Positions 3,811 through 25,200 of a stretch of 39,071 nt of DNA are shown piece by piece. The stretch comes from Nemertoderma westbladi (taxonomy: Eukaryota > Animalia > Xenacoelomorpha). The notes under the pieces were generated by a model. That model saw only the letters and a program-made list of their open reading frames with translations, ran no database searches and was not told the origin of the DNA. The stretch spans positions 1-39,071 of the forward strand of contig JAUCBJ010007799.1 of NCBI GenBank assembly GCA_032718475.1, in the 5' to 3' direction. Position 1 is the first letter of the stretch, and every line of letters begins with the position of its first letter. The position numbers were made by a program, and so were the translations under genes.

Positions 3811-4154
3811 GGATGATCCACCTCTATAGCAAATGGAGCGGAAAAAAATGCGAATTCGCCACCGTATTAAATTACTTAATAATTTATACAATCTCATGGA
3901 TGTTAAAAACATATAAACAATAAGATTCGTTTGCAGTACAGGTCATAACTGCTACTGTATTAGGATACAGATTAAATTCATCCGTTACAGCGGACTGTAT
4001 TCATGTTTAAATTACTTAATTATTTTTATTTTATTTTTAATTATATCGATATTAGTAGTTGAACCGGCCTACAGTAAGTAAGACCAAAGCGAAATTCCTA
4101 TATTATAGTCTAGTGAGGAAGTTCAATCTTTACATCCCTTGATTGTAGCCTCAT

Positions 4155-5393
4155 ATGAATATGAATTATCAAAACACGTTTGCAACAAAGTTTCACATTC
4201 AATGGTTATTGTATTTTAGTTGTATTTTCATCTTCGTTTCTGATGCTAATGATCGCAATCCGATAGTTATTGGAAACACAACCGAATCAAATGTGTACCA
4301 CGAATATTATCGAGAAATTACACAATCTGATTATGATGAGATGAGAAAGGGATATGAGATTTATCGCAATGTTTCGAAAATTGTTTCGGGCTATATTCTC
4401 ACGCCCTATATATCAACATATAATATATTTGGTCTGATTGGAAATATATTAATAATTGTAACAATTGCGATCGAGAAATCATTCAATACTCTATTTTATA
4501 GAATGTTGGTGTTAAAGTCAGTTTTCGATATTCTGATCTCATTTGGTCATCTACTATTACAAGGTCAGAATTCCAAGTGGTTCTATTTTGAAATTGAATC
4601 ACTAACAGTAAACAACTATACAATTTGGCAGTTTCATTGTTATAACGTTGTTTATTGGTTATGCCAGTGTTATTGGCCGATATTTGCGTGGTGTGTACAA
4701 TATGGAGATTCAACACTCACATTAATAATGGGTGCAGAACGTATTGCAGCCCTTTATTTCCCGGTATGGTATAAGGATACAAAATTAAAGAATAACAACA
4801 TGATATATGGGATTATTGTAGTTATTTTTGTATACACAGCATTTCTGTACTGGCCTTACGTAGTTAGGTTTAAGGGAGAAATTCGACACGTAAATGGCGA
4901 AAAACAATATTGGGCTTTACTTATGTATTGGCGTTCACATAATATCCACTTCAGTAGGGCGTACTTGTTTCTTGAGTATTTCCTCCCTATAAGAAACGCC
5001 ATTCAAATTGTAGGAGTGATTGCTATCAACAGTCTTATTATTTATAAGTTTAGAAAGCGAATGAAGGCTAACCCAAACTCACCAACAAATAAAAAAATGT
5101 CCGCAGCTGTAAAGATGATGCTAATTACTGGAGTATTAATGTGCACAAAAGATTGCGCCCGGGGTATATATAAAATTATAAGAGCACACTTAGACAATGT
5201 ATCAGGAAATACAAATGCTTTATCTACATTAGATGAAGTTTCTGTTTATGAAAAAATGTTAACAATCAATAATATTGCAGCACAGGTAGGTAGTCTCTCT
5301 ATTGTTGTCTTCAGCCTAAATTTTTACCTCATGTATATATTTGTTGGAAGTTTCCGCAGGGCTACTAATGTCCACATATTTAAAATAAAATAA
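4155..5393 (+). CDS. Intronless rhodopsin-family (class A) 7TM GPCR, peptide-receptor/FMRFamide-receptor-like or chemoreceptor-like orphan
   Basis: 412-aa open frame with seven hydrophobic segments: TM1 GLIGNILII, TM2 LKSVFDIL, TM3 end AERIAALYFP (DRY variant), TM7 SLNFYLMY (NPxxY variant), helix-8-like FRRA. N-terminal N-glycosylation sequons NTT and NVS. Confidence 0.85.
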   Translation: MNMNYQNTFATKFHIQWLLYFSCIFIFVSDANDRNPIVIGNTTESNVYHEYYREITQSDYDEMRKGYEIYRNVSKIVSGYILTPYISTYNIFGLIGNILIIVTIAIEKSFNTLFYRMLVLKSVFDILISFGHLLLQGQNSKWFYFEIESLTVNNYTIWQFHCYNVVYWLCQCYWPIFAWCVQYGDSTLTLIMGAERIAALYFPVWYKDTKLKNNNMIYGIIVVIFVYTAFLYWPYVVRFKGEIRHVNGEKQYWALLMYWRSHNIHFSRAYLFLEYFLPIRNAIQIVGVIAINSLIIYKFRKRMKANPNSPTNKKMSAAVKMMLITGVLMCTKDCARGIYKIIRAHLDNVSGNTNALSTLDEVSVYEKMLTINNIAAQVGSLSIVVFSLNFYLMYIFVGSFRRATNVHIFKIK

Positions 5394-5947
5394 TATATAG
5401 ATAACCTATTTTACTATTATTATGTTAAATTTCCTCCTGATACTATTTCACTATTTTCCAAGATTTCTCCTTTGGTAAACTTTTTGTGTTTTCCTAGTTT
5501 ATAGCCTACTAAATGTTCCACTGAATTAATTGGCTAAATGTTAATTGTGTTACCGGTATCATTTATGGCAATAAATATTTCCTTTAAAAGTAAAAACCTT
5601 ATTTCTCATTTATTCTCATTATACTTATTTCTCTCGATTTGAGGTAATTTGAGGATATTGACATTTACATAATTCCTACTCATCGTAGTATATTAATTAA
5701 TAAAAACAAATATAAAATAATTTATTTCATTATTAGAATGGATATCAAATAAACTAGGCCTACTACTTATTGTATTATTATTAATTAAAATAACAAATTG
5801 TATTGTTGTTATAAATTAAGTAATTATTTATTAGGTTGGAATAGAAACCATGACTGGTGTTTTAACTTCAACTCGCTGTTTATTAACCGGGATGGGACTC
5901 CCAACACGGAATCCCCAATTAATTGTTCCAGACTGACCAGTAGTGGC

Positions 5948-6977
5948 TGTATTGTCCATCCTCTCTCCAATAAGCTTTTCGCGAACTAATATGCATTCCA
6001 TTTATATTTACTGGTGATATCTACTTAGCAACGAAATCTTAGGCCCATAATATTACTGTGCGATTATATTTGCTCTGATTAGAGGTAGCCATAGCTTTGG
6101 TTCCGGCGCTTAACAAACTCGATAATTAATAGCCGAGCCAATAGCAGGGGTTTATACTTAGTTTAATGTTACACTTCATACAACAGGTTGACCTCTGTAC
6201 AGAGTAGCTCCCATAAGTATAGTACACTCTATTCCTCAGGTGTCATTAATTCACGTTGTCAGTATGTAGGTAGATAGCTTGTCGGTTTGTGCTGTCATCT
6301 ATTTAGCAGTGCAGTACGGTACTTTGGCCATCTAAGGCCTACAGTCATAGCGGTCACTTAATTTGGTTACCGCACATCCTCACGCACGCGCTCATGCACG
6401 CGCTCACGCACGCACGAATCATATTCAAATGCAGTTCTGTTGTTCAATGGTGCTATTATCTCATTGTCAGCGTGAGCAGTTTGGAGAATCTAATTAATTA
6501 CAAACTTTGGAAGCCGTGTCTATCTGGTCTGTTGTGCTGGGTTTTCATTGTGCTGTGCAGATTATTAAATGCCGGTAAGTCACCTTTCTGTTATTTCAAT
6601 ATTGTTACGTTTGTAAATCAGTAAATGTAAATGTGGGACATTAGTTTCTAGGCTTATTCTGCTTATAAGATATTATAGATACATTTTTATACAATGGACC
6701 ACTCTGCAATTTTCACATCCTTATCCCCATAGCTAGATCCCTAACAGCCTGCTGTAAGAGTTTAAACCAAACACATCCCCAGCCTCACAATTCGTGCGCG
6801 TGAACCAGTGACCCTGCGTTGACTTTAGGCTGCTGCACTGCACATCGGGCAGTCGGGCTGGAGATCCAAGCCAACCAGTGGGCCGCTACTCGCCTGGTGT
6901 ACTATCTACGGGGAGATATATTCGCCAGGTCCTCACAGTTTTACCCATATGACCCATAGCGGTCACTAACCCCGACA
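5948..6977 (+). repeat. 5' LTR (1030 bp)
   Basis: TGTATTGTCC...CCCCGACA. Aligns to 18267-19282 at offset 12319, with about 4 substitutions seen by eye and one 14-nt indel near 6896-6909. Confidence 0.97.
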
Positions 6978-6990
6978 GTAACCAAATTAA
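6978..6990 (+). promoter_or_regulatory. Putative self-priming primer-binding site (non-tRNA)
   Basis: GTAACCAAATTAA directly after the LTR-terminal CA is the exact reverse complement of LTR nt 6358-6370 (TTAATTTGGTTAC). No TGG-initiated tRNA PBS lies at this position. Confidence 0.65.
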
Positions 6991-7125
6991 ATTTCTACCG
7001 TATTTTTTTTTAATCCCAATCGCAGAGGAGCAGAGGAGCATGTTCCGTAGTTATAGGCATTAAAACGAGATTGTGTGTGGAAGTGTAACTGGGTACAATA
7101 ACTGTTTTTTTTACGCACAGGCTGG

Positions 7126-7530
7126 TACCGGTGTTAACAATACTTGAGTACTGTGTAGGCTATAACTGACTTTCTACACATATGCCGGTGTTAAACGGTA
7201 CTGTGTATAACTGTACTCCCACACAAATACCGGTGTTAAACGGTACTGTGTATAACTGCACATCCACATACATATACCGGTGTTAATCTTAAACGGTACT
7301 GTGAAGTGTGTATTACTGTATTGTAAACGGTTTGCGTATTACTGTACTGTAAACGGTTTGTGTATTACTGTATTGTAAACGGTTTGTGTATTACTGCATT
7401 GTAAACGGTTTGTGGATTACTGTATTGTAAACGGTTTGTGTACTACTGTATTGTAAACGGTTTGTGTATTACTGTATTGTAAACGGTTTGTGTATTAGGC
7501 CTACTGAATTGTAAACGGTCGTGCGTATGT
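7126..7530 (+). repeat. Tandem repeats in the BEL 5' UTR: ~4 x ~45-bp units, then ~8 x 26-bp units
   Basis: Units TACCGGTGTTAAACGGTACTGTGTATAACTG.. (7126-7305) and TGTATTACTGTATTGTAAACGGTTTG (7309-7525). Confidence 0.9.
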
Positions 7531-7997
7531 AACTGTCCGTCTATACAGCAATACTAGGGGTAACAGGCAGACAGGTATTGCGTAATAATAACTACCTTTC
7601 TAATCATAGCTACCGGTGTAAAGTGTGGGTTTGTGTGTAACTGTCTCTCCATTTGGTGTAGGGCTATAACCTATCTCTCCACCCATTTTTTTCTAACAGT
7701 ACCGGTACTCGATACTTTCAAATCTTCACCAAACTGTGTCTCATCATTTCAACTTCCTGTTGTTAATTGTTGTAATAACTGTTTATCTTTTAATCAGTCT
7801 TATCACGCTTGCAAACTGGTATGCACGTGTGTGCTAACTGGTAACGCACTAAACTTAATAACTTTCTGTTTAATTAACTTTCCAACTAACTGCACTAATA
7901 GACTGTTTTAACTAGCAACGGATTAGTTTGCTAATTTATACTACTTATAACTTAACGTATATAATATACCTTAGATATCATAAAATATTACCGAACT

Positions 7998-10900
7998 ATG
8001 GATGTAAATGAAAGTATTGAACCTAGCGATAGTGTACACGCTAGCGGGGGTACATCTGGAGCAGTGCCCATCCTAGCAGTGGACCCGAACAGCCCTGTTG
8101 CCACGGTAACACCCAGCACCAGTGGGGGCGCATCTGCTGCTGAGTCTATAATAGTAACGAACAGTTCTGTTACCACGGTAACCCCCAGGTTGGCAGCCCC
8201 AATCGATCGAGTATGCATACCAAGACATCCACGACCCACATCTGCCTTGCGTCAGAGTCACACAGGTAGAAATGATAATGGCAGGGAACGAAACTACTCG
8301 TCCCGTAGTATACTCGACAGAGCAGCACTGGTGGAAAAATATCGCGCCAGTAAGAAGTCCATGGGGGCTTATAAAGGGCAGCTTACCCGATGCTATAATT
8401 CATGCGGTAAGCTACCTGGGATCGGACTAGCAGAGATTCAAGATCTTGAATCCACCCTAGCTGATGCCTATGATAGATGTCTATCAGCCAGGCACACCAT
8501 GTTCTCCATCCTATATCGTCTTGGTGACGACGCAGAACTGGATGCATTCAAGAGAGAGAGTGTAGATATAGAAAAGCGAAATGAGCAGTGTAAATCCGAC
8601 TTGAGTACTTTGTTTAGGGAAAGAAATGCCCTATACAGAGTACCGATGGACTACACAGCTATGACGCTACAACCCGAGTCAAATGAGCCTATCGGAAGCC
8701 CCTTGCATGGGGAAACCTTCGAATTAAGTCCAACGGTAGATGAACTTCATACACCGATATGCGTAAGCACCACGAGCCCGAATATTAATGCTATTTGTAT
8801 TTCCACAGGTACACAAGCAATACAAGGACAGGTGTCTCGTCAACTATGTTCAACGATGCTGCAAACGAACACAATTGGTACACATAACTCAAAATCCACA
8901 ACTACAGTGTTGTCAAAGGGACCATATTCACTCCCAGGTGAGTCAGGTTATCACCCATCAGCCTTATGGCAACATGTACCGATAGCGGCTGGTCTTGAGC
9001 AGAACCTGGTTGGTCCTGAGGACTCAACTAGTCAAAGAAATTCAAAATACTCAAAAAGAAGTTCAAAACATAGTAAGCGCAGGCCAAGTCCTGTGGAGGA
9101 ACTAGGTAGTGAAGCTAACTCTGAAACAAGCCTGTCTGCAGTTTGGAAAAGTGAGAGACAGGCTGAGTTAGAACGTGTGCGTGCCTTTCAAATTAAATCT
9201 AGCTATGTATTTAAAGTACAGGCCGCTACTGAAGTGGCTGACAGACAGGCAAAATGTGCTGAGATGCAGGCAAAAATACAAAATCAAGAGGCTTCAGATA
9301 GAGCGGAACTAGCACAGCTAAAAGTAAAATTACTAAAACGAGATAGAGCTCGTAAACTAGGAGTTGAGTCACTTGGGGGCCAATCAGAGTCTGCCAATGG
9401 CGGTCTGCCTCTCAGTGCACCCAGCTTAGGTTTACCTAGAAATGCCGACGATGGTAATAATGTACCTATTACTGGTCCTACAAATGAGAACCCCATACAC
9501 GTAAGTAAAGCATCAATCAATGTTACCTGTAGTGCGAACCCAGATACGGCAGTGCCCATTCCAAATGTAAGTACCGCAGAAGTTAGGGAAACCGAGACTG
9601 GTAACGGAAAGGGGAGGGAGTATAGTGTTCAGGGGATGTCGGGTAGTTTGAGAAACAGCGTGCAGAAGGTAATTGAAAATACGGGTGCACTAAAATCAAT
9701 GCTACATCCAACACAACATTACACTTTGACAGATAGGAGGGAGTGGGGAAGTGAGCATGAAATTGAGCACAAAACGGATCTGGAATCGGGGCAAGCCGAG
9801 ACCGATAGTAGGCAAGCAACACTTGGGAACAACTGGCGGGGTGCGCTGGGTGACGGGCTGACAATGACCAAACCTACGGTGGGTGACCTGACTAACCTGG
9901 GGTCCAGTAAAGTTTCCAACACCAAGGAACTGGTGTCAGAAACTATCAAAACAAGTACTTTGGCTCAACACAATGCACGTAGTGTGCGGGCCAATGCCCA
10001 GACCCACCCACCTGATAAATCAGAATATGTCTCACGAAAAGAACTAGAAACAACCATTGCTCATATGCTGAATTCTATAGAATTAAACAGCAAGGGCCAG
10101 ACACATGCATACCAGGGAACGGCACCTGATACCATGCATTCAGTTCTACAAAGGAAGCAGTTGTGTTCAAATGAGCAGAAACAACTGCCAAAACTGTCGC
10201 CCATTTTAGAAGCTGGAGAAAGCATTACAAGCTACGAGCAGTGTGTATTTTGCGACAGCCATGGTCCAGTATCTACAGTTTATTATACTGAAGAAGGGAC
10301 AGCCTTCCATCGATACTATGATGGAAATAAGGTTACAGCCCTAACGCACCCAACATCGGCATTACCGGCCCAAAACTCACCCGGAAATATGCACCGGCAT
10401 GCATTTGGCAATCAAAAGGGCACCACTACAGTGATAGAAATTCAAGCCGCTCAAAAATCTGGCCCGTCACACGAAAATAGCGGCCAGGCAACCAGAATAA
10501 CAACCGGGCCAACTATAAATGGTCAGTCCCATATTGAAACAAGCAGACAGAAACAGCCGACAACGTCGATGGGTGCACCAGTAAATGAACTAGATGGTCT
10601 CTCCGCTATATTCAATCCAGAAGGAGTGCAATCAAACTACCTAAGTAGCAATGGCCAAGGGCAATATGGCAGGAAAGGGCCTAGTAATCCGGTTGCGGTA
10701 AATAGAATCGGCGACGAAGGATCAAGCAGAAGTCGACATCATCTAAATAGCGCAGTGGATAATGAAGTCGACGATAGGCAGGAATTTAATGCGAGCAGAA
10801 GGGCAAATGACTCAGCAACCGAAATCTTTAATCGACTACTAAGGTCCTGCGACGCACCACCACACGACTACTTGCAGCCAGTAAATCCGGATGCCATATC

Positions 10901-11924
10901 AGCCCAACCAAATCCAGCCGATCGCTCAGGGCAACCCGCAGTTCAACTATTAAGGGATATCTCAATGAGACTGAGACTGCCGCCCCAGGCACCAACAACC
11001 TTCGATGGGGACCCAACAAGATTCATCAGTTTCATCCAGAACTTCCACGATAGGGTGCATATCAGTGACATCAGCGACTCAGAGAAACTAAGTATGCTGC
11101 TGATGTACACCTGCGGACCACCTAGAAGACTAATTGAAAACTACGAAGGTCTACAAGGGGGTTATGCAAAAGCACTACATGTGTTACAAGAAAGGTATGG
11201 ACTACCAAACCTAATTATAGAGAGATCTGTGGCCAAACTGGTAGACCATGAGATGATAGCTGAAAATGACCAGGAAGGACTGCAGGAATACTCGGATGAC
11301 ATTAACAACTCAATCACATTATTACAACATCTAAAACGGCCTCGCGAGCTACATACACAGTCCAACATGAAGAAAATCATGGCCAACTGCCCAGTGCATG
11401 TCCAACGACGGTGGGCAAAAACAGCGTTTCATACGAGAGAAAATCTGAACAGGGAACCAAATTTATTCGAAATGGCATCTTTCATCTACGAAAGTGCATC
11501 GATTCAGAACGAAAATGTGTTTCAAGTGGACGAATCTCGCAAGCACTACCTGCGAAGCCAAAGAAATGAAAAGGAAAGAATTCCTAAAGGTGACATCATA
11601 CCACCAATAAAACAAACTACTCTAGTCGCACCCGTTAGAGCAAAAGAGGGAGCGGACAAAGTACAAAACTATAATCAGCATAGAAATATGCTTGCCACTA
11701 CGCAACGTCCAGGACAGATTATGCAAGGACAACAACACAGCCAACATATTAATAAACAGGACCAAAAATACCAGTATCCAAATAATGGCCCACAGTTCAA
11801 CAATCCTGGAAATATTTTTAGTGCTCAGTCGAAGCCCTACAGCAGCAATAATCAAAATCTGAGGCCAAACTATTCACAAAATGTCGTATACTCTGGCCTA
11901 TTACCTCAACAACAACAACAATGA
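7998..11924 (+). CDS. gag: BEL/Pao Gag region with very long N-terminal extension
   Basis: 1308 aa. A DUF1759-like capsid segment near aa 995-1170 (PTTFDGDPTRFISF..SDSEKLSMLL..LQERYG). N-terminal helical segment (SKKSMGAYKGQLTR) and a coiled-coil. Ends in TGA in frame with the next ORF. Confidence 0.85.
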   Translation: MDVNESIEPSDSVHASGGTSGAVPILAVDPNSPVATVTPSTSGGASAAESIIVTNSSVTTVTPRLAAPIDRVCIPRHPRPTSALRQSHTGRNDNGRERNYSSRSILDRAALVEKYRASKKSMGAYKGQLTRCYNSCGKLPGIGLAEIQDLESTLADAYDRCLSARHTMFSILYRLGDDAELDAFKRESVDIEKRNEQCKSDLSTLFRERNALYRVPMDYTAMTLQPESNEPIGSPLHGETFELSPTVDELHTPICVSTTSPNINAICISTGTQAIQGQVSRQLCSTMLQTNTIGTHNSKSTTTVLSKGPYSLPGESGYHPSALWQHVPIAAGLEQNLVGPEDSTSQRNSKYSKRSSKHSKRRPSPVEELGSEANSETSLSAVWKSERQAELERVRAFQIKSSYVFKVQAATEVADRQAKCAEMQAKIQNQEASDRAELAQLKVKLLKRDRARKLGVESLGGQSESANGGLPLSAPSLGLPRNADDGNNVPITGPTNENPIHVSKASINVTCSANPDTAVPIPNVSTAEVRETETGNGKGREYSVQGMSGSLRNSVQKVIENTGALKSMLHPTQHYTLTDRREWGSEHEIEHKTDLESGQAETDSRQATLGNNWRGALGDGLTMTKPTVGDLTNLGSSKVSNTKELVSETIKTSTLAQHNARSVRANAQTHPPDKSEYVSRKELETTIAHMLNSIELNSKGQTHAYQGTAPDTMHSVLQRKQLCSNEQKQLPKLSPILEAGESITSYEQCVFCDSHGPVSTVYYTEEGTAFHRYYDGNKVTALTHPTSALPAQNSPGNMHRHAFGNQKGTTTVIEIQAAQKSGPSHENSGQATRITTGPTINGQSHIETSRQKQPTTSMGAPVNELDGLSAIFNPEGVQSNYLSSNGQGQYGRKGPSNPVAVNRIGDEGSSRSRHHLNSAVDNEVDDRQEFNASRRANDSATEIFNRLLRSCDAPPHDYLQPVNPDAISAQPNPADRSGQPAVQLLRDISMRLRLPPQAPTTFDGDPTRFISFIQNFHDRVHISDISDSEKLSMLLMYTCGPPRRLIENYEGLQGGYAKALHVLQERYGLPNLIIERSVAKLVDHEMIAENDQEGLQEYSDDINNSITLLQHLKRPRELHTQSNMKKIMANCPVHVQRRWAKTAFHTRENLNREPNLFEMASFIYESASIQNENVFQVDESRKHYLRSQRNEKERIPKGDIIPPIKQTTLVAPVRAKEGADKVQNYNQHRNMLATTQRPGQIMQGQQHSQHINKQDQKYQYPNNGPQFNNPGNIFSAQSKPYSSNNQNLRPNYSQNVVYSGLLPQQQQQ

Positions 11925-14900
11925 ATGCAAACTACTCCAAGACAGCTACCCGGAGTATCTAGACCACTAAAATGTATATTTTGCAATGAACTAGGCCATC
12001 GGGTATACTCATGCAGAAAGTTTTCAGAGTTAAGTTATGACGAACGCCTGGCATATGTGCAATCAAAGGCAATGTGTGACTACTGTCTAGGGGTGCACCC
12101 GAGGGAGTCGTGCAGAACTGTAGGGAAATGTGCACTCTGCAGTGACGCCACACACCACTCACTACTACATCCATCCACAGGGAGATCTAAAGAAAAGACT
12201 GACAAAGAACAGCATCCAGGTGATAACAAGGTCGTACTAGTACTGAGAACCACTGACGACTACACCAGTATGTTACCCGTTATTCCAATACGGATTACAA
12301 ACCCTGATGGAGCAAAATGGAGCGTTACAGCCTACGCGATATTGGACTCTGGAGGCTCTACGTGCTTCATTGATAAAGAGGCAGCAAAACTGATCAGGCC
12401 TATGGTAAAATATAGAAATATTCTGGTTGGCGCTCTGTTTGGAGAAGAACAAGAAATGCAAGTGGGGCAAATCACCTGCAGCGTCACTGCCGTTATGAAA
12501 GGATATGAGGCGGAAATAATGATCCATAATGTTAATGTGCATGAGGGCATGCATTTCGATAGTCAGATGCCAGATAAAACGATGACAAGGTGGCCTCATC
12601 TAGATGATCTAAAGGAAAAACTAGACTACCCAGAAGTAGACATTCATCGTATTGTAATGATAATTGGCGTTAATGTTCCTATGGCACACTATCGCAAACA
12701 GCAACGTTGGGGTAATCCATTTAAAAACGAACCCTTTGCAATAGAAACCATCTTTGGCTGGTGTCTAGCCGGCCCAAAGAAAGCTAATGTAATGCTAGAA
12801 CGTCGTTGTGCAGCACTATCTAATACAGCCGGACTTTGTAACGAGGATGCAGTTATTTACGACCCTATCAATTCTCCATTAGTAACTGAACCGGATAAAG
12901 ACCTAAACCGTCATCTACATCACTTCTGGTCACTGGAGGGGCAGGGATTTAACACCCCATCAGAAATTACTCGGAGAACCCCAGAGGATAATCGTGTTGT
13001 GGAATTGCAAAAACAGATAGTGCTGTTGCCAGAGGCTCACTACCAAGCCCCGTTACTATGGAAACTGGAACAACCCATACTAATAAATAACTATTTACTG
13101 GCCCTAAGTAGACTCAATAGCTTACAGAAACGTTTCTCGAGGAACCCAGGGAAGGAGAAGGAATATCGAGGAATACTACAGACTTACCTAGACAAGGGCT
13201 ATGCAAGGAAGATGAACTCTAATGAACTGGTAAATTCTAGAACCACATACTACCTACCTCACCACTACGTAGTTAACCCCAACAAGGAGAAAATTAGAAT
13301 CGTATTCGACGCTGCAGCAGTTTACAAGGGGCAATCACTGAATTCCCAATTGCTTGACGGACCATCTCAGACCAGTCTACTACTTGGAGTTCTAATTCGT
13401 TTTCGACTTGAGAAAGTAGCCTTTGCCTGCGATATAGAGGCCATGTACTACCAGATAAGGGTCCCTGAAAAAGATGCAGATAGCCTACGTTTTTTATTTT
13501 ATGATGAGGGTAGGGAGACTACACCAGAGATATACCAGATGCTAGTAAATCCCTTTGGAGCCAAGTCCTCGCCAAGCAACGCGGGAGCCACACTAAGACG
13601 CGTAGCAAATGACAATAAAAATAGTTTCTCAAAGGAGGCAATAAAAACCATACTAAGATACTTCTATGTTGACGATGGTATGAAATCCTGCAGATGTTAC
13701 AAAACCGCACTTGAACTAGCTGATGAACTGATAAGATGTCTAGCAATGGGTGGGTTCAACTTGACTAAGTTTATGAGCAACTCGAAAGAATTCATGGCAG
13801 CGATTCCAAAAGAGCTTCGAGCAGGGCCAGATATAGACCTAGATTTGGATAATCTTCCAATAGCCAGAGCGCTCAGACTCAAATGGGATACACATAATGA
13901 TACAATCGCCATACAGTCAGTTCCACGCCGAGGAGCAAAGACTAAGAGAGACTGTATATCTATCATCGCAAGTATATATGATCCTTTGGGATTCATCGGC
14001 CCTGTCGTACTAATAGGAAAGAGGTTTATGAGAGAATTAACCCTAACCACACCAGGCTGGGACGATAATCTAAGTAATGACTTTCTGGAACGCTGGGAGA
14101 CCTGGGTGGACCAGCTGCATCTAGTCAATCAAGTCAAGTTTGCAAGACCGTATTTTCCAGATAGGGATGACTCAGATTGGATAGAGCTGCATACATTCTG
14201 CGACGCATGTGAGACTGGCTACGGAGCAGTAGCGTACTTAAGGAAGTTGATGATGAAGGAACCTATACCATTAGAGCCAGTGCTGACTGAGCAACTTGAT
14301 GAGCTGGAGCGCACAGCTATGACTGCCTTTGTAGCCTCGAAAACACGGACATCTCACTACAAGTTTATATCAATACCAAGGAAGGAACTCCAATCTGCCG
14401 TTTTAGCAATCCAACTTGCAAGGACCATCCTGGAGGAAATAGATATTAAAATCAACCAAGCACACTACTGGAGTGACTCACGAACAACCCTAAACTATAT
14501 AGCAAACGAGGGAAGGAGGTATCCCACCTTCATACTGAACCGAGTACACGAAATTACATCCGTATCGAGACCAGACCAATGGCACCACGTTAGGGGTAAG
14601 GACAACCCAGCTGATATGGCAAGTAGGGGAGCATTTCCGCGAGAGTTCATCAAAAGCTTCAAGATATGGAGTGAAGGGCCACGATTTCTTCTAACCAGTC
14701 AGACAGAATGGCCATCAGCAGACTTCATGTATATGGGGAAGCAGCCAGAACCAGGTATGGAGTTAAAGAAAAACCCCTTGCCAGGGGACATGAACCCAAG
14801 GGACGACGTACCATACATACATGAACCTGAACTAGACAATGCGGTGGAGGCACGAACAGATTTTCGCCGAAAACAACTAAAAAGAATCCCAGAACCAACA

Positions 14901-16922
14901 CAAAGTAGGAAAGAAGTACGTAAAGCATGTGCGCTAGTCATGATCAAAGAAGGTACGATAGTTCATGAGCAGGACCACGCAGCAGATACCAAAGAGCCAG
15001 AACCGGTGGCTGCCACGGAACTGCATAATCCAAATGGGACAAACAATGTTGGTGACCCAATGTCTTGGGTTCTACAGGCTTTAATAAACGATACAATCGT
15101 GGATCACCCACTCACGGAAGCGGTTGGGGACCATACTGCGTTTAAACCAGACGACAGTTTAAGAGACGAGAGGAGAGTGGACGAAATGTCCTACCAGGAT
15201 CTCATAGACTATGAAAAGTCTGTACTGTCTAAGCAGAAGGTAGATGTTATGTTAGCAACGAAGAGACCGTTAGCTGAAAACAACCTATTGGAAAAAATCT
15301 TGAACTCTAACGAAAAACTGGAAAAGGCCATCCAACGTGTGGCATGGCTTTCTAGATATAAAATATGGATGCAGCAAGTCGCACTTGTTAGGAAAGCAGA
15401 ACGTCAAGAGCACGAAGTAAATTTCGGGACAACCGCAACAACTCACCGTAGACCTCTGCAATATTACTCAGACTCCATAATGAAAGCAACGCCAAACAGT
15501 TGGGGAAAGGGTAGACTAAGCGTGAGAGAACGTCTGCTGGCAGAAAGGCAACTACTGCAACATTCACAGGAAATTGAATTTCCTACTGAGTTAAACAAAC
15601 TACGAGGTGGAGCAGCTGTACTTAAATCCAGCCCGTTATATAAACTAAATCCCTTCCTGGATGAAAACCATATACTACGAATGGGGAGTAGAATTGTACA
15701 GGCTCCGGTAGACCGCGACATGAAGGAGCCGATAATCCTCCATTCAAAGGGTCTTATGGCCAGAATGGTCATCACGCAGCTGCACCGACACAACTTGCAC
15801 GCAGGCCGAGAGCATACCGTGGCAAGCGTTAGGAAGCGTTTCTGGATCATAGGTGGACAAGCACTAGTCAAGAAAATCCTATCTAGATGCATAACCTGTA
15901 AAAAAATACACCCCAGAGCCATGAAACAACTGATGGCGCCCCTACCTCTAGACAGGATAACCGCATTCGAACCCTGTTTTACCTACTGTGGATGTGACTA
16001 CTGGGGGCCTATGTACGTAACAAGAGGAAGGGGTACAGAGAAACGATGGGGGACAATCTTCACTTGCCTGACCAGCCGGGCCGTGGCCCTCGACATTGCA
16101 CGCGATGCATCTGCGGCGTCGTTTATTAATGTTTATCGACGATTTATATGCGCACACGGCGATGTGAAACTAATACGATCCGTTAATGGAACCAATTTTG
16201 TTGGGGCCGAGCGAGAACTGCGTGAAGCAATGACGAAGTGGAACAGTGGTATAATAAGTAAACAAATAGGACCTGGGACCGAGTGGGAATTTCAAGTTCC
16301 ATACGCATCGCATACAAGTGGGGTTTGGGAGAGACAAATAGGAATAGTAAAGAGTGGACTGAAAGCAACACTCGGCAATGCATTAGTTGACGAAGACACA
16401 CTGAGAACGGCCTTAGCAGAGATCGCAAGAATCATGAACTCTAGACCATTGTGCGCCGCAACCGATGATCCAACGGCGGACCAACCACTCACACCAAATG
16501 ACCTCCTACTCAGACGGCCTGCTTCACGAGTTCCGGGGCAATTTGACACCGACGCCATCTACGCACGCAGGACGTGGGAACAGGGACAGCAACTTGCACA
16601 TATCTTCTGGACTCGGTACTTAGACGAATATCTTCCACTACTGTGTGAGCGACAACGGTGGTTTACTCGGGAGCGCAACTTGCAGCCAGGCGACCTAGTC
16701 CTAGTAATGAGTGACACTAAGGATCGAGGTGCATGGGTAACGGCCATTGTGGAGTCAGTGAATATGGGAAACGACGGTTTGGTAAGATCAGCGAGAGTGC
16801 GTTACAATGGATCGACATACCTTCGTCATATAACGAAGTTATGCCTGTTAGAAGGTGTAACATTTCCATCTGGCGGGACAGTTATAGAAAACAGTAAAGG
16901 TCGGCCAGCGAACGACGGCTAA
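11925..16922 (+). CDS. pol: BEL/Pao nucleocapsid-protease-RT-RNase H-integrase polyprotein
   Basis: Three Cys/His knuckles (CIFC..H..C, CDYC..H..C, CALC..HHSLLH). Protease ILDSGG. RT YYLPHH, KIRIVFDA, FYVDDG. RNase H HTFCDA, IPRKEL, WSDS, NPADMASRG. Integrase H..H/CITC, CDYWGP, RSVNGTNF, GVWER. Confidence 0.95.
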   Translation: MQTTPRQLPGVSRPLKCIFCNELGHRVYSCRKFSELSYDERLAYVQSKAMCDYCLGVHPRESCRTVGKCALCSDATHHSLLHPSTGRSKEKTDKEQHPGDNKVVLVLRTTDDYTSMLPVIPIRITNPDGAKWSVTAYAILDSGGSTCFIDKEAAKLIRPMVKYRNILVGALFGEEQEMQVGQITCSVTAVMKGYEAEIMIHNVNVHEGMHFDSQMPDKTMTRWPHLDDLKEKLDYPEVDIHRIVMIIGVNVPMAHYRKQQRWGNPFKNEPFAIETIFGWCLAGPKKANVMLERRCAALSNTAGLCNEDAVIYDPINSPLVTEPDKDLNRHLHHFWSLEGQGFNTPSEITRRTPEDNRVVELQKQIVLLPEAHYQAPLLWKLEQPILINNYLLALSRLNSLQKRFSRNPGKEKEYRGILQTYLDKGYARKMNSNELVNSRTTYYLPHHYVVNPNKEKIRIVFDAAAVYKGQSLNSQLLDGPSQTSLLLGVLIRFRLEKVAFACDIEAMYYQIRVPEKDADSLRFLFYDEGRETTPEIYQMLVNPFGAKSSPSNAGATLRRVANDNKNSFSKEAIKTILRYFYVDDGMKSCRCYKTALELADELIRCLAMGGFNLTKFMSNSKEFMAAIPKELRAGPDIDLDLDNLPIARALRLKWDTHNDTIAIQSVPRRGAKTKRDCISIIASIYDPLGFIGPVVLIGKRFMRELTLTTPGWDDNLSNDFLERWETWVDQLHLVNQVKFARPYFPDRDDSDWIELHTFCDACETGYGAVAYLRKLMMKEPIPLEPVLTEQLDELERTAMTAFVASKTRTSHYKFISIPRKELQSAVLAIQLARTILEEIDIKINQAHYWSDSRTTLNYIANEGRRYPTFILNRVHEITSVSRPDQWHHVRGKDNPADMASRGAFPREFIKSFKIWSEGPRFLLTSQTEWPSADFMYMGKQPEPGMELKKNPLPGDMNPRDDVPYIHEPELDNAVEARTDFRRKQLKRIPEPTQSRKEVRKACALVMIKEGTIVHEQDHAADTKEPEPVAATELHNPNGTNNVGDPMSWVLQALINDTIVDHPLTEAVGDHTAFKPDDSLRDERRVDEMSYQDLIDYEKSVLSKQKVDVMLATKRPLAENNLLEKILNSNEKLEKAIQRVAWLSRYKIWMQQVALVRKAERQEHEVNFGTTATTHRRPLQYYSDSIMKATPNSWGKGRLSVRERLLAERQLLQHSQEIEFPTELNKLRGGAAVLKSSPLYKLNPFLDENHILRMGSRIVQAPVDRDMKEPIILHSKGLMARMVITQLHRHNLHAGREHTVASVRKRFWIIGGQALVKKILSRCITCKKIHPRAMKQLMAPLPLDRITAFEPCFTYCGCDYWGPMYVTRGRGTEKRWGTIFTCLTSRAVALDIARDASAASFINVYRRFICAHGDVKLIRSVNGTNFVGAERELREAMTKWNSGIISKQIGPGTEWEFQVPYASHTSGVWERQIGIVKSGLKATLGNALVDEDTLRTALAEIARIMNSRPLCAATDDPTADQPLTPNDLLLRRPASRVPGQFDTDAIYARRTWEQGQQLAHIFWTRYLDEYLPLLCERQRWFTRERNLQPGDLVLVMSDTKDRGAWVTAIVESVNMGNDGLVRSARVRYNGSTYLRHITKLCLLEGVTFPSGGTVIENSKGRPANDG

Positions 16923-17055
16923 GTTGGAACTATTTTTGAACTCATTTAAACTATTTGTTCATTTACTACTACACTGTTGTTTGTTTTTTTGTACGTCTGA
17001 AGATATATATGAAGCAAGAAACAGATACGACTTCAGAAAGGATTTGCGGCGTCCA

Positions 17056-17150
17056 TATAACCTAGCAACCGTATGTATATGTAACCTAGCAATGTGATGT
17101 GTATATATGTAACTTAGCAACATGATGTATGTAATGTAACCTAGCAACAC
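17056..17150 (+). repeat. Short ~23-27-bp tandem repeat in the BEL 3' UTR
   Basis: Four copies of the TAAC(C/T)TAGCAA core with TATGT-rich spacers. Confidence 0.7.
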
Positions 17151-18266
17151 TGATACGGGCGACAACCGACATATGATAAACTATTATAAAATGGTGACAA
17201 TTTTGTTGTATGAAACTACGAGTGCAAAATCGGATGCATACACCTCCGCATCAGCTAACTACGTAAATCATGGTACTGGAACTAAACGTTGAATAAACTT
17301 TAATGCTGAGGGCGCAAACGCGTGAGCTGGTCACCATGCCAGGGGACGTGGTATAATAGCCCAAACAAACTTTATGTATATTTATTATTATGGTGCGTGG
17401 TGATATCAGTTTCAATTAATCTCGCTAACTGAATCTCGCTAACGCTAATTACTACTAAATAATTGGATTGTCGGGGTCTAACGTGGCACAGACATGACAG
17501 TGACGGGGGACTTATGTAGTTCAGGATGATTTCATTGTAACATTCACAAAACGTAACTAATATCATTCATTTTACTTTTTAATGCAACTTCGATGATGGA
17601 TTAACTAAGTAACCCATATAGTCTACATCGAGAGGAGGCCTTGGCGCAACATGGTGGCGGGACATTCAAACTCAAACTGAAAGATTTCTCATCTATCAAC
17701 GAACTCATGAGCGAACATGGTGACTGATAAAACGGCGATGGTGGACTCAATCACGGACTCTGGTGGACTCAACCTCGAACTTAGAGTCAGAACTCGGTGA
17801 AGGATTGGTTAACATGTTCGGTCACTTTGTAGAACGATATTTGTACTATCTATATATACGTCTATCTGTAGTTTATTTACTGATATTGTTATTTTTGATT
17901 AAGCTTGGTGTTATGTACTTACCGGAATTATTTTCTATGTAATAACTTGTAATTTTGGTGCTATATACTTACCGGCATCGTTCTTTTTCGTAATAACTTG
18001 TGTGCACGGTGCACGGATTGTTATTTTTGGGGGGCTTAGTTAGGCTGAGTAAGGGAATGGGGTAACCACATAGACACAGCGGGTGGGGTGTTCTTACACA
18101 ATCTTATAAACAAATTTCGCGGCCAAAGGGGGGTTTAAAAAAAAAAAAACTGAAAGATTTACTTTCAGTTTGAAAATAGCTTAGGGAAGTGCAGTTATCC
18201 TTTGATGCTGTATCTTTGGGTTTATAAAAAATAAGTTTTTTCAAAAAAATATTTTTTAGGGTGCAC

Positions 18267-19282
18267 TGTATTGTCCATCCTCTCTCCAATAAGCTTTTCG
18301 CGAACTAATATGCATTCCATTTATATTTACTGGTGATATCTACTTAGCAACGAAATCTTAGGCCCATAATATTACTGTGCGATTATATTTGCTCTGATTA
18401 GAGGTAGCCATAGCTTTGGTTCCGGCGCTTAACAAACTCGATAATTAATAGCCGAGCCAATAGCAGGGGTTTATACTTAGTTTAATGTTACACTTCATAC
18501 AACAGGTTGACCTCTGTACAGAGTAGCTCCCATAAGTATAGTACACTCTATTCCTCAGGTGTCATTAATTCACGTTGTCAGTATGTAGGTAGATAGCTTG
18601 TCGGTTTGTGCTGTCATCTATTTAGCAGTGCAGTACGGTACTTTGGCCATCTAAGGCCTACAGTCATAGCGGTCACTTAATTTGGTTACCGCACATCCTC
18701 ATGCACGCGCTCATGCACGCGCTCACGCACGCACGAATCATATTCAAATGCAGTTCTGTTGTTCAATGGTGCTATTATCTCATTGTCAGCGTGAGCAGTT
18801 TGGAGAATCTAATTAATTACAAACTTTGGAAGCCGTGTCTATCTGGTCTGTTGTGCTGGGTTTTCATTGTGCTGTGCAGATTATTAAATGCCGGTAAGTC
18901 ACCTTTCTGTTATTTCAATATTGTTACGTTTGTAAATCAGTAAATGTAAATGTGGGACATTAGTTTCTAGGCTTATTCTGCTTATAAGATATTATAGATA
19001 CATTTTTATACAATGAACCACTCTGCAATTTTCACATCCTTATCCCCATAGCTAGATCCCTAACAGCCTGCTGTAAGAGTTTAAACCAAACACATCCCCA
19101 GCCTCACAATTCGTGCGCGTGAACCAGTGACCCTGCGTTGACTTTAGGCTGCTGCACTGCACATCGGGCAGTCGGGCTGGAGATCCAAGCCAACCAGTGG
19201 GCCGCTTCTCGCCTGGGGAGATATATTCGCCAGGTCCTCACAGTTTTACCCATATGACCCATAGCGGTCACTAACCCTGACA
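18267..19282 (+). repeat. 3' LTR (1016 bp)
   Basis: TGTATTGTCC...CCCTGACA, followed by the TSD GTGGC. Confidence 0.97.
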
Positions 19283-19321
19283 GTGGCGGACATTGGCCGT
19301 CCAATGCTGCAATAAATTTTA

Positions 19322-20816
19322 CTAGTGACGGGCCTAGCGGCCCGATAAGGAACCGACTTTTTATTTCAAATAAAAGAGACAACGAGAATTATTATAGAAC
19401 TAATAATTATGTAAAAATACAATCATATTTCATACAATAATTATTAATAAATTCGATCTATTATTAGTTACTCAATTCTAGAACAAAATCGACCTGCAAC
19501 TAGTGAAGACCTCGTTTTGGAATTTCGAAACCACGCTGGTGCGATGCGCGATATCGTGTTTAGTTAATAAATTGAAAACTCCATCAATTCATGTGCAACC
19601 AGTAATAAGAAATCGCGATAAATGTAATTAAATAAAAATTATTCTAGAAAAATTTTCCTCAAAAAATATGAAGTCTTGGCGTTGGTGACGCGAAACTAGG
19701 CTAGTGAGATTCAGGATATTGCGTTTAATATAAAAATCGAAAACGCTATCGAATTCCGTAAAGCCGTTAATAAAATACTGCAACTTTTTTGAAATTTGTA
19801 AAATTCTCGAACTGGAAAAAATTAATTTTTGAACGGCGCTGTTTGTGGTTTGGAAACATGGATAGGCTGAAAGAGGACATCAAATTAAGTTGAAAAATGA
19901 AAACCCCATCGAATTTGGACAAAGCGTTCCGGAGTTATAGCGGATCGAAAAAAATTGACCCCCCCCCAGTCGCCAAAAATTTACAGTAATTTAAAATTTT
20001 GCAAAAAAAATTTTTTGCGTTATTTTTGATGGCGAATCGATTGGCAGTACTGGCTACGAAAAATTTTTTTTTGAAATTTTTGGTCAGAAAAAAAAACATG
20101 GAAAAAGTATATTTTTAAAAAGATTTGATGTCTTTGCCTATGGTCAGAGAATGATCCAACTCTGTAACATGGCAATCGCTCAAATCCATTCAGCTGAATG
20201 GCACAGTAGAGTAAACTAAAGTAAATTCCCTATACAATGTTCTGAAGGGGTGACTGACAGAGAGTAATCCAACAATAAAACATTTTGCAATAATGTTGGC
20301 ATTAATGTAGCCAACTCACTGTGTACGTAACAGTCATTCAGCTTACATTAGCAGAGTGAGATATTCCCATAGATTGCATTGGGAAGAGTAATTCAGCTGA
20401 GGCGATATTAGATTTCAAACTAAACCAACCAGTTAATAATGTTTGCTTTGACAGAGAGTGGTGGCCTATACAAACAGTATGGGTGTACTGAGTATAATAA
20501 TCTTGGCAACCTCATCGATTTATTACTAAGCCTTCTGTAGAAATGCATTACATAAGCCATTTTTCATCACGACACCAGCTGTTATTGGTGATATTTTACC
20601 ATTGCGCCAATGGCGTTTTTTCGTTTATGTCTATTTTTCGAGCCCACGGCTCATGGACGAAATAGCGGAACATACCAGGGACCTTAGAATCGCGGTATCT
20701 AGCCGCTGTGAAAATTTCATCAAAATCGTTAGAGTAGTTTTGACTGTAGATCAGCCAGCCAGTCAATCAATCAATCAGCCAACAATTCTTACAGTAATGA
20801 ACCTCTCGGTTCCTAA
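19322..20816 (-). mobile_element. Non-autonomous Helentron/HINE (DINE-1-like) element, family A, copy 1
   Basis: On +: CTAG, hairpin CGGGCC-TAGC-GGCCCG (19329-19344) and subTIR AGGAACCGA (19348-19356). At the far end: AAATTTCATCAAAATCG core, (CAGC/CAAT)n microsatellite, palindrome GAACC-TCTC-GGTTC with partner subTIR TCGGTTCCT (20806-20814). No TSD. On the minus strand it ends hairpin + CTAG, as Helitron 3' ends do. Confidence 0.8.
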
Positions 20817-22308
20817 CTAGTGACGGGCCTAGCGGCCCGATAAGGAACCGACTTTTTATTTTAAATGAAAGAGACAACGAGAATTAGTATAGAACTAATA
20901 ATTATGTAAAAATACAATCATATTTCATAAAATAATTATTAATAAATTCGATCTATTAATAGTTGCTCAATTCTAGAACAAAATCGACCTGCAACTAGTG
21001 AAGACCTCGTTTTGGAATTTCGAAACCACACTGGTGCGATGCGCGATATCGTGTTTAGTTAATAAATTGAAAACTCCATCAATTCATGTGCAACCAGTAA
21101 TAAGAAATCGCTATAAATGTAATTAATTAAATACAAATTATTCTAGAAAAATTTTCCTCAAAAAGTATGAAGTCTTGGCATTGGTGACGCGAAACTAGGC
21201 TAGTGAGATTCAGGATATTGCGTTTAATATAAAAATCGAAACCGCTATCGAATTCCGTAAAGGCGTTAATAAAATACTGCAACTTTTTTGAAATTTGTAA
21301 AATTCTAGAACTAGAAAAATATATTCTTTGAACGGCGCTGTTTGGGGTTTCGAAACATGGATAGGCTGAAAGAGGACATCGAATTAAGTTGAAAAATGAA
21401 AACCCCATCGAATTTGGACAAAGAGTTCCGGAGTTATAGCGGATCGAAAAAAATTTACCCCCCCCAGTCGCCAAAAATTTACAGTAATTTAAAATTTTGC
21501 AAAAAAAATTTTTTGCGTTATTTTTGATGGCGAATCGATTGGCAGTACTGGCTACGAAAAATTTTTTTTTGAAATTTTTGGTCAGAAAAAAAAACATGGA
21601 AAAAGTATATTTTTAAAAATATTTGATGTCTTTGCCTATGGTCAGGGAATGATCCAACTCTGTACTTGGCAATCGCTCAAATCCATTCAGCTGAATGGCA
21701 CAGTAGAGTAAACTAAAGTAAATTCCCTATACAATGTTCTGAAGGGGAGACTGACAGAGAGTAATCCAACAATAAAACATGTTGCAATAATGTTGGCATT
21801 AATGTAGCCAACTCACTGTGTACTTAAGTCATTCACCTTACATTAGCAGAGGGAGATATTCCCATAGAGTGCGCATTGGGAAGAGTAATTCAGCTGAGGC
21901 TATAATAGATTTCAAACTAAACCAACCAGTTACTATTTGCTTTGACAGAGTGTACTGGGGCCTAAACAAACAGTATGGGTGTACTAAGTATAATAATCTT
22001 GGCAACCTCATCGATTTATTACTAAGCCTTGTGTAGAAATGCATTACATAAACCATTTTTCATCAGGACACCAGCTGTCATTGGTGTTATTTTACCATTG
22101 CGCCTATGGCGTTTTTTCGTTTATGTTTATTTTTCGAACCCACGGCTCATGGACGAAATAGCGGAACATACCAGGGACCTTAGAATCGCGGTATCAAGCC
22201 GCTGTGAAAATTTCATCAAAATCGTTAGAGTAGTTTTGGCTATAGATTAACCAGCCAGTCAATCAATCAGCAAACAATTCTTACAGTAATGAACCTCTCG
22301 GTTCCTAA
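20817..22308 (-). mobile_element. Helentron/HINE-like element, family A, copy 2
   Basis: Head-to-tail near-copy of 19322-20816 with scattered substitutions and the same termini. Confidence 0.8.
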
Positions 22309-23547
22309 CTAGAGACGGCGTCAAGACGCCGTTAAGCAAGTCGGAAGTCGTCAATCAAAGGTAAGTTCCCTCAACAATGTATATCTATGTTCAGAAGGGA
22401 AGTGTTATTTACCTATGGTCAGAGAGAGATCCCACTCTGTAATTTGGCAATTGCTCAAATCCATACAGCTGAATGACTCAGTAGAGTAAACAAAAGTAAA
22501 TTCCCTCAGCCTCAACAGCGTTTGCCTATGGTGTGAAGGGAATCTGACAGAGCATAATCTTAGCCACTAAATGTCATTCACCTAACAAAACATTTTGAAT
22601 GCCACAGTGATTAACCAAATACAGATAATAAGCAGTTATTTTTATATTTCAAACTATAATGTTAGTGTTAGCCTTACAGTGTATCAGTATGAAGCTGAGT
22701 AAACATTCGCCTTATAAGCATACAACATCGAACATCCAAAGTATTAATGTTGGACGAAAGATTTAAAAATAAAATACAGTGCAGTAGTACTCTGTAACTA
22801 ACAGTCATTCAGCTTGCACTAAATGTCAATCACCTATAAAACATTTTGAATGCCACAGTGAATATTAACCCAATACAGATAATAAGAAGTGATTTTTATA
22901 TTTCAAACTATAATGTTAGTCTTAGCCTTACAGAGTATCAGTATAAGGCTGAGTAAACATTCCACCTTATAAGCATACAGCCTCCACAGTATTAATGTTG
23001 GCATTAATGTAGCCGATACACTGTATACCTAATAGTCATTCAGCAGGGGGAAGAGTTATTCAGCCGAGGCGGTAATAGATTGCAAACTAAACCAACCAGT
23101 TGGCAGCCTCATCGATTTATACTAAGCCTGTGTAGAACCACAAACTAAATCAACCAGTTAATATTTGCTTTGACAGAGAGTGAGGGCCTAAACAAACAGT
23201 ATGGGTGTACTGAGTACAATAATCTTGGCAACCTCATCGATTTATACTAAGCCTTGTGTAGAAATCCATTACATAAGCCATTTTTCAGCAGGACACCAGC
23301 TGTCATTGGTGTTATTTCACCATTGCGCCTATGGCGTTTTTTCGTTTATGTCTATTTTTCGAGCCCAGAGGCTATGGACGGAGTAGCCGATCATGCCAGG
23401 GACCTTAGAATCGCGGTATCTAGATGCTGTGAAAATTTCATCAAAATCGTTAGAGCAGTTTTGGCTGTAGATCAGCCAGTCAGTCAGCCAGTCAGCCAGT
23501 CAGTCAGCTAACAATTCTTACAGTAATCAAGTCTAACGACTTGCTAA
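22309..23547 (-). mobile_element. Helentron/HINE-like element, family B (different termini, shared core)
   Basis: CTAG, hairpin ACGGCGTC-AA-GACGCCGT (22315-22332), subTIR AGCAAGTCG (22335-22343) and partner CGACTTGCT (23537-23545) inside palindrome CAAGTC-TAAC-GACTTG. Shares its core with family A and has an internal ~250-bp duplication (22565 vs 22817). Confidence 0.78.
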
Positions 23548-23662
23548 CTAGTGACGGGCCTAGCGGCCCGATAAGGAACCGACTTTTTATTTCAAATAAA
23601 AGAGACAACGAGCTCAGCTCGGTCTTGCACGATTGGGCACGATTAAGTTCGACTTGGCTTGA

Positions 23663-24026
23663 TCGGCTCGGCTCGGCTCGGCTCGGCTCGGCTCGGCTCG
23701 GCTCGGCTCGGCTCGGCTCGGCTCGGCTCGGCTCGGCTCGGCTCGGCTCGGCTCGGCTCGGCTCGGCTCGGCTCGGCTCGGTTCGGCTCGGCTCGGCTCG
23801 GCTCGGCTCGGCTCGGCTCGGCTCGGCTCGGCTCGGCTCGGCTCGGCTCGGCTCGGCTCGGCTCGGCTCGGCTCGGCTCGGCTCGGCTCGGCTCGGCTCG
23901 GCTCGGCTCGGCTCGGCTCGGCTCGGCTCGGCTCGGCTCGGCTCGGCTCGGCTCGGCTCGGCTCGGCTCGGCTTGGCTTGGCTTGGCTCAGCTCGTCTCG
24001 GCTCGGCTCGGCTCGGCTCGGCTCGG
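23663..24026. repeat. (GGCTC)n pentanucleotide microsatellite, ~70 units
   Basis: Read directly. It produces the spurious LGSAR/AEPSR ORFs. Confidence 0.97.
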
Positions 24027-24039
24027 TCTGAGTCGACTC

Positions 24040-24398
24040 CCCGTGCTGCTCAAAGGGCGCAAATACATATATCAAAGGGTCAAAGCAAAACTCACGTGCT
24101 GCTCGAAGGGTCAAAGTCAAACAATGTGTCTATTATTTGATGTAATTCACGTGCTGCTCGAAGGGCGCAAATACATATATCGAAGGGTCAAAGCAAAACT
24201 CACGTGCTGCTCGAAGGGTCAAAGTCAAACAATGTGTCTATTATTTGATGTAATTCACGTGCTGCTCGAAGGGCGCAAATACATATATCGAAGGGTCAAA
24301 GCAAAACTCACGTGCTGCTCGAAGGGACAAAGTCAAACATTGTGTCTAATATTTGATTAACTCACGTGCTGCTCGAAGGGCGCAACTACATATATCGA
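24040..24398. repeat. 108-bp tandem repeat (~3.3 copies, each a dimer of ~53/55-bp subunits)
   Basis: CACGTGCTGCTCGAAGGG recurs, with period 108 between 24148 and 24256. Confidence 0.9.
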
Positions 24399-25157
24399 AA
24401 CAAGCCCCTGTCTTGTATTTTAATTATATCAGAAATCCTTGCCTTCAGTACAAAATATCTAAAAATTCATTTACCTGAAGTATGGGTAACATTATAAATT
24501 CGCTTTTCACACAGTAGTTAACTAAAGCAAATACCCTTCAGGTTGACTGAATGATTTTATTAATGTTTGCCATGAATAGTACTATATTTGGGTCCCACGA
24601 CCCACCCCTGAACAGCTTTGCTTACATCTGATAGAGAGTAATCCCAAATTAACTTCCCTCTACGAAAATTATTTTAATTAAATACATACAACATAGCAGT
24701 CAACTCTGCAATCAACAGTACACAATAACTAAAATGGCATTCAGTTTACCAGCTATTCGCATTAAGCTAATAGATATTCGATTTCATTCGATTCAGTGAG
24801 TGTGTGAGGGCTATTGGGAGAGCAATCAGCTTATGATGTAATACATTAGAATCCCACAGCTTTTGTTTGCTTACTGTCTGAGTTGTAGAGTGAGGATAAT
24901 ACTTGGCAGAGAAAGCATTTCCTTGTTAGGTGGCCATTCCTATAGAATAGCATTACTAGGCCATCTCTATCCATTTTTCATGAGTGCCAGCTGGTGTTTT
25001 TATCATTGCACCTATGGCGTTTTTTCGTTTATGTCTATTTTTCGAGCCCACGGCTCATGGACGAAATAGCGGAACATACAAGGGACCTTAGAATCGCCGT
25101 ATCTAGCCGCCGTGAAAATTTCATCAAAATCGTTAGAGTAGTTTTGGCTGTAGATCA

Positions 25158-25200
<43 letters not shown>

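Follow-up and report, generated by a model that had tools for sequence, protein, structure and literature searches.

A BEL/Pao retrotransposon in DNA of Nemertoderma westbladi appears to prime reverse transcription with a segment of its own long terminal repeat (LTR), released by a cut in its RNA as in the Tf1 element, and a primer built by splicing is the likely ancestral form of this arrangement. To this overall reading, which is drawn from sequence comparison, we assign a probability of about 0.7.

The element and its priming site

The element is located on the forward strand of the window (the whole stretch of 39,071 nt that was analysed), at positions 5948–19282 (13.3 kb), between the two copies of a 5-bp target-site duplication (5943–5947 and 19283–19287). 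The 5′ LTR (5948–6977) is 1030 nt long and the 3′ LTR (18267–19282) 1016 nt. They differ by four substitutions and one 14-nt indel, which, together with the flanking duplication, marks the insertion as young. LTR length, TG...CA ends and target duplication fit the BEL/Pao criterion of LTRs of 0.2–1.2 kb. The size of the element exceeds the 4.2–10 kb BEL/Pao range, and the PPT-like tract preceding the 3′ LTR (18258–18266), which was also set against those of relatives, is short and purine-poor compared with the roughly 10 nt expected.

The Gag-side open frame (7965–11924, containing DUF1759) ends at an in-frame stop in a run of glutamines, upstream of the Cys-His boxes. It is continued in the same frame (11925–16922) by the Cys-His boxes, protease, reverse transcriptase (RT), RNase H (in the Peptidase_A17 region), integrase and DUF5641. 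The Pfam matches, DUF1759, RVT_1 (below the cut-off, E 1.7e-4), Peptidase_A17, Integrase_H2C2 and DUF5641, follow the BEL/Pao order. PF05380 is present in 120 of the 120 protein matches listed, which have 38–46% identity to the element; the named proteins among them belong chiefly to marine animals such as echinoderms, corals and further cnidarians. Judged by protein domains, the element is thus a member of BEL/Pao (Belpaoviridae), as the first-pass annotation had it, with a priming site that departs from the ICTV description. The acidic residues of the RT and the four acidic positions of the RNase H are all present. One position of the integrase core is altered and, together with the stop before the Cys-His boxes, this makes the window copy look defective.

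The long 5′ leader contains a tandem array of 26-nt units (7281–7523). Elsewhere in the window, other retroelement frames are found at 1248–2747, 25625–29266 and 32148–36058, two with RT matches plus a fragmented Gypsy-like pol. A single-exon frame of 414 amino acids with a match to 7TM GPCRs (Srsx) is located at 4149–5393, 550 nt upstream of the BEL/Pao insertion. Degenerate tandem units of about 1.5 kb, with an inner 10-nt array, fill 19321–25250, and a 63-nt tandem array is present at 29844–31148.

Immediately downstream of the 5′ LTR, the primer-binding position (6978–6990) does not start with TGG. It is the exact reverse complement of an uninterrupted LTR segment at 6358–6370, the candidate self-primer, and of the identical segment in the 3′ LTR at 18677–18689. 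C6370 faces G6978, and the perfect helix ends at both flanks of its 13 base pairs. The missing TGG, the pairing and its register had been pointed out in the first-pass annotation and are confirmed exactly. The accompanying chance estimate of 1e-5 is too low for this element alone, because its AT-rich site also matches 3 of 16 foreign LTRs, over 10, 10 and 12 nt. In dinucleotide shuffles of the LTR, 13 nt were reached at offset 0 in none of 20,000 cases and at offsets 0–3 in 2 of 20,000; against the real LTR, 3 of 39,041 window positions match over at least 13 nt, 6978 itself being one of them. Taken alone, the pairing in the window element is suggestive, short of decisive.

A tRNA match from 6978 onward, which the first-pass annotation had proposed to look for, was sought among 96 proxy tRNAs taken from the fetched loci rather than from the host itself. 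In this set, the best internal match is 7 nt and the best match to a 3′-end is 8 of 18. As a control, the TGG site of relative L113 matches tRNA-Lys over 17 nt; the other three TGG-type sites lack a partner, so the proxy set must be incomplete. The self-pairing sites of two other relatives, L087 and L082, resemble this tRNA-Lys site, and L087 shares 9 nt with tRNA-Lys.

Co-variation among relatives and the predicted LTR intron

Relatives were taken from a profile search (the best 80 of 463 metagenome loci and 12 from binned genomes), and ten further stretches were added from two of the genome bins. Loci L081–L092 and L113–L122 are on contigs binned as bacterial or archaeal; the animal BEL/Pao elements there, like the tandem tRNA arrays, represent host contamination. 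Statistics were restricted to elements in which the two LTR copies, 5′ and 3′, fix the LTR end through their divergence from the flanks. The first set comprises 17 elements, the window element included; L023 (identical to L025), loci without an LTR pair, and L017, L058 and L061, in which one LTR is cut or altered at its end, were left out. Five of the ten later stretches have an LTR pair, and L114, with a TGG site and a cut 3′ LTR, was not counted. A scan of viral contigs returned nothing.

Among the 21 elements in all, 16 pair with their own LTR over 10–15 nt, each with its own letters, one shows a near match and four are of the TGG type without pairing. In the first set, matches of 10–15 nt, beginning 0–4 nt past the LTR end, are present in 15 of the 17 elements, two of them uninterrupted and 13 only across a GT-AG junction; in these 13, uninterrupted matches are just 6–8 nt long. 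L087 has a junction match with one mismatch (8 nt under the strict score), while L050 has a TGG site and an own-LTR match of 4 nt. Of the later elements, L120 matches its LTR over 11 nt across a 76-nt intron, and L113, L115 and L116 have TGG sites and own-LTR matches of 4–6 nt. The partner is therefore uninterrupted in two of the 16 pairing elements (L062 and the window element) and found only across a junction in 14.

Ten of 272 foreign pairs reach 10 nt: six among three sisters that share a site, three involving the AT-rich site of the window element, and one other. Permutation gave no equal in 100,000 trials, for families that are not fully independent of one another, and flanking and shifted controls reach 4–9 nt. 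Judged from these comparisons, self-pairing at the priming position is real and lineage-wide, and the co-variation across BEL/Pao families that had been proposed as a check is present. When 7.5 kb upstream were scanned, chance matches were frequent (at least 11 nt in 82 of 252 foreign pairs); elements typed only by this wide scan or by eye were for that reason used as tree labels and kept out of the statistics. In the 1.6-kb LTR of L089 (1561–3220), a junction-type match over a predicted intron of about 1 kb was judged by eye.

The helix could have a role other than priming, in packaging, in translation or as a splice-sensing switch, with a tRNA fragment or another site used for priming, or the match in the window element could be due to chance; the foreign matches of 10–12 nt to its AT-rich site would agree with this, as would the reliance on a proxy tRNA set. 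We consider it unlikely, given that the helix begins as close to the LTR end (0–5 nt) as do the TGG sites of relatives, and that all 17 elements lacking TGG have it, one of them with a mismatch, whereas the four TGG-type elements do not. A fixed set of tRNAs cannot keep pace with such a variety of sites, each of them matched to its own LTR, and for this reason the own-LTR pairing outweighs the tRNA comparison. The self-pairing site may have descended from a tRNA site.

To avoid circularity, the predicted intron that splits the pairing segment was also looked for by a search in which any deletion of 30–1200 nt was allowed and no splice signal was required. Of the 15 junction-type elements, nine have GT-AG ends at their best split, as do 5 of 334 foreign pairs; for the other six elements, a longer chance split without GT-AG was obtained. 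The 14 predicted introns start with GTAAG or GTGAG, end with YAG and are 67–451 nt long (67–77 nt in seven of them). All 14 are richer in T than the rest of their LTR, two of them slightly. At two of the last three bases of exon 1, the sister elements L082 and L083 carry different letters, and the site bears both matching changes. From these sequences, we infer that in most relatives the primer is built by splicing of an intron inside the LTR, and that this is likely the ancestral state. The uninterrupted segment described in the first-pass annotation is the form of the window element but not that of most relatives, in which the segment spans a predicted LTR splice junction that had been overlooked.

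A junction-type primer was looked for in the window element and none was found. A candidate 77-nt GT-AG intron (6575–6651) is located downstream of the primer segment, and its junction does not fit the priming site; removing it leaves the predicted fold unchanged. No splice joint at this intron is present among the listed alignments of contigs from runs X1–X4. The listed rows of the same runs contain no substitutions in 6352–6381 or 6978–6990; these are contigs only and were not counted as support. A split match of 18 nt, also in the window, is bounded by CT-AC and was set aside as chance. In the 3′ untranslated region, 17967–17978 is a 12-nt exact complement of the candidate donor (6569–6580) and of its copy in the 3′ LTR, with a weaker copy at 17917. 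Masking of the 3′ LTR intron by such an antisense donor copy was discarded as a general rule, the complement being 12 nt long in the window only and 4–7 nt in 14 relatives.

The tree was calculated from 49 RT-RNase H rows (LG+G4), with topology tests on 28 rows; many of its type labels come from the wide scan or from inspection by eye rather than from independent LTR ends. The window element has a long branch (1.13) and is found in a 100/99 clade with seven junction-type and two TGG-type elements. The nine uninterrupted elements require five changes, four of which are forced by starred branches, and a single clade of uninterrupted forms is rejected (AU p 4.6e-11, 28 rows). The TGG-type elements are split in the free tree, yet one TGG clade is not rejected (p 0.78). 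Five of eight uninterrupted-type LTR stretches contain zero or one donor-like site. Since the uninterrupted forms do not make up one clade, repeated loss of the intron would be the simplest reading of the tree; repeated gain at the same spot would also be compatible with the tree taken alone. That the uninterrupted form of the window element arose by intron loss is probable.

Predicted course of priming

In 15 of 16 elements, the last two bases of the primer segment are AC, and the next base is a pyrimidine in 16 of 16; in the window element, the AC end is followed by C, as in most relatives. In both duplex and whole-leader folds, a second helix is predicted upstream of the perfect one, between 6350–6354 and 6997–7001. 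It lengthens the pairing upstream, further in relatives than the 6350 reached in the window element (permutation 107/20,000, for families that are not fully independent). A longer 5′ piece probably holds the primer segment in its interior and, as the pairing continues upstream, the RNA probably begins upstream of 6358. The 13-bp helix has a predicted probability of 0.87–0.98 in leader folds for RNA starts at 6340–6356 and of 0.0–0.25 for starts at 6200–6330. A start at about 6340–6350 is thus likely, with 700-nt folds being weak evidence. One contig of run X4 begins at 6292, upstream of the start favoured by the folds. TATA-like boxes are found at inconsistent distances from the donor across LTRs, for which reason no start site was called. 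The initiator-like motif at 6354–6359 noted in the first-pass annotation is present but has no value as evidence for a start site. Of its Tf1-like scheme, the BEL/Pao identity, the lack of a tRNA-type site and the co-varying complementarity stand; in place of a primer made of the first 13 or so nucleotides of the RNA, with its start at 6356–6358, a longer 5′ piece is probable, as a second helix extends the pairing upstream to 6350.

A 13-nt direct repeat is present just upstream of the primer segment (6346–6358) and near the LTR end (6955–6967). Either copy could pair with 6997–7003, a possible structural switch around the priming site. In contigs of three runs, 7018 is joined to 6593 with 24 other letters in between, perhaps from a rearranged sister copy.

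In the mechanism we prefer, the 5′ part of the transcript would fold onto 6978–6990, the RNA would be cut after C6370, probably by the RNase H of the element itself, and copying would begin at the LTR-terminal CA. That the element's own RNA is the primer is highly probable; that the primer is a cut 5′ piece acting in cis has about an even chance. In the junction-type lineage, splicing of the LTR intron would assemble the primer. The intron itself would survive, since its place is upstream of the cut and the unspliced 3′ LTR would provide it anew after strand transfer. If a spliced copy were used instead, an intron-less element like that of the window would result. We somewhat favour the wider proposal that, in a broad animal BEL/Pao lineage, the tRNA primer was replaced by one that the spliceosome assembles from two LTR exons, with reverse transcription gated by splicing, and that copying of spliced RNA has repeatedly given Tf1-like descendants devoid of the intron.

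The primer might also be provided in trans, by a short spliced LTR transcript (from the 5′ LTR or a solo LTR, and ended at the LTR poly(A) signal) that is cut and anneals to unspliced genome RNA. In 10 of 14 junction-type LTRs, a poly(A) signal is located 8–104 nt past the acceptor, which is the layout of a terminal exon, and retention of the intron would be explained without selective splicing. The contigs of run X4 are confined to 6292–6696, and one of them continues with 22 A after 6696, a possible poly(A) site on the forward strand; this is a weak hint, since the run carries the label "DNA?" and ends cannot be read from contigs. The Tf1 precedent folds in cis, and sequence alone cannot separate the two arrangements; priming in trans seems rather unlikely to us.

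The copy of the segment in the 3′ LTR (18677–18689, spliced in relatives) might instead pair with the site, circularize the genome and be cut to yield the primer. The segment is identical in both LTRs, and a 3′-terminal intron beside a poly(A) signal would splice readily, as is known from terminal exon definition. The loop would have to be 12 kb instead of 0.6 kb, no precedent was found, and the cut would presumably take away most of the repeat required for strand transfer, all of which makes this very improbable. Finally, the RNA might not be cut at all. In retrons, the RT primes from a 2′-OH group and a branched RNA-DNA molecule is formed. Priming from a 2′-OH at the end of the helix would suit a primer segment that, in view of the second helix, seems internal and without a free 3′ end, and it would suit the conserved AC-pyrimidine step at the segment end. 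The acidic residues of the RNase H are, however, intact, and for Tf1 it is cleavage by RNase H that has been demonstrated, so that a cut is preferred and a branched product regarded as most improbable.

Comparison with known systems

Self-priming as such is known from Tf1; what surprises here is the predicted splice-built primer. The main texts of three BEL/Pao papers (PMC554778, PMC3118150, PMC6238403) do not contain "PBS", "priming", "tRNA" or "splic", and the excerpts of PMC6934838, PMC3601003, PMC5443660 and PMC8220671 hold no self-primed BEL/Pao case. Within this literature, no report of BEL/Pao self-priming or of splice-built primers was found; missing PBSs may be mentioned in supplements of the BEL/Pao surveys or in Repbase and GyDB entries, which, like subscription papers, were outside its scope. 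A primer made by splicing, if true, would couple reverse transcription to RNA processing, would be expected to evade tRNA-fragment control aimed at tRNA sites, and would explain why annotation tools miss PBS calls in these elements. The window element would be the end state after intron loss. The origin of self-priming becomes testable with existing RNA-seq, as the positions of junction reads and of RNA ends follow from the model with single-base precision.

According to the ICTV profile of the Belpaoviridae, all BEL/Pao elements are tRNA-primed, with an 18-nt site for tRNA-Arg or tRNA-Gly and a genome of 4.2–10 kb, and their replication is poorly understood (PMC8742986). The window element resembles them in LTR length and in domain content and order (PMC8742986), and differs in having 13.3 kb and no 18-nt tRNA site. 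Among elements lacking a PBS, the GalEa copia elements of fungi and the TRIMs of bivalves share the absence of a canonical tRNA site with the window element; what has been proposed for them is a hairpin formed locally, downstream of the LTR (PMC6934838, excerpt). In the window element, the pairing is with the LTR's own R region and not within a local hairpin.

In the excerpts of three papers, self-priming is described for Tf1 and its relatives, Tcn1 and TAR copia (PMC7175516, PMC6317226, PMC4600332). The plant Ty1/copia elements TAR, Houba and Osr-1 are a case predicted outside Gypsy (PMC6317226, excerpt), which argues that self-priming arose more than once; they have the copia domain order and plant hosts, and a splice-built primer is not mentioned in the excerpt. 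A self-primed BEL/Pao branch, if true, would mean that self-priming arose independently a third time, in addition to Gypsy and copia.

The closest likeness is to Tf1 and Tf2 of Schizosaccharomyces pombe, Tj1 of S. japonicus, the Tf1/sushi group and Tcn1, in which, as far as the excerpts go, about 11 nt of the priming site can pair with LTR RNA of the element itself. The Tf1/sushi group belongs to the chromovirus lineage of Ty3/Gypsy, whereas the window element carries BEL/Pao domains: it is not a member of that group, and would work like one. In Tf1, the primer consists of the RNA's initial 11 bases; this RNA folds in cis and is cut by RNase H between bases 11 and 12 (PMC7175516, PMC4600332, PMC6317226, excerpts). 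Here, the pairing reaches further upstream and the cleavage is predicted and, unlike in Tf1, a predicted intron interrupts the segment in 14 of the 16 pairing BEL/Pao elements.
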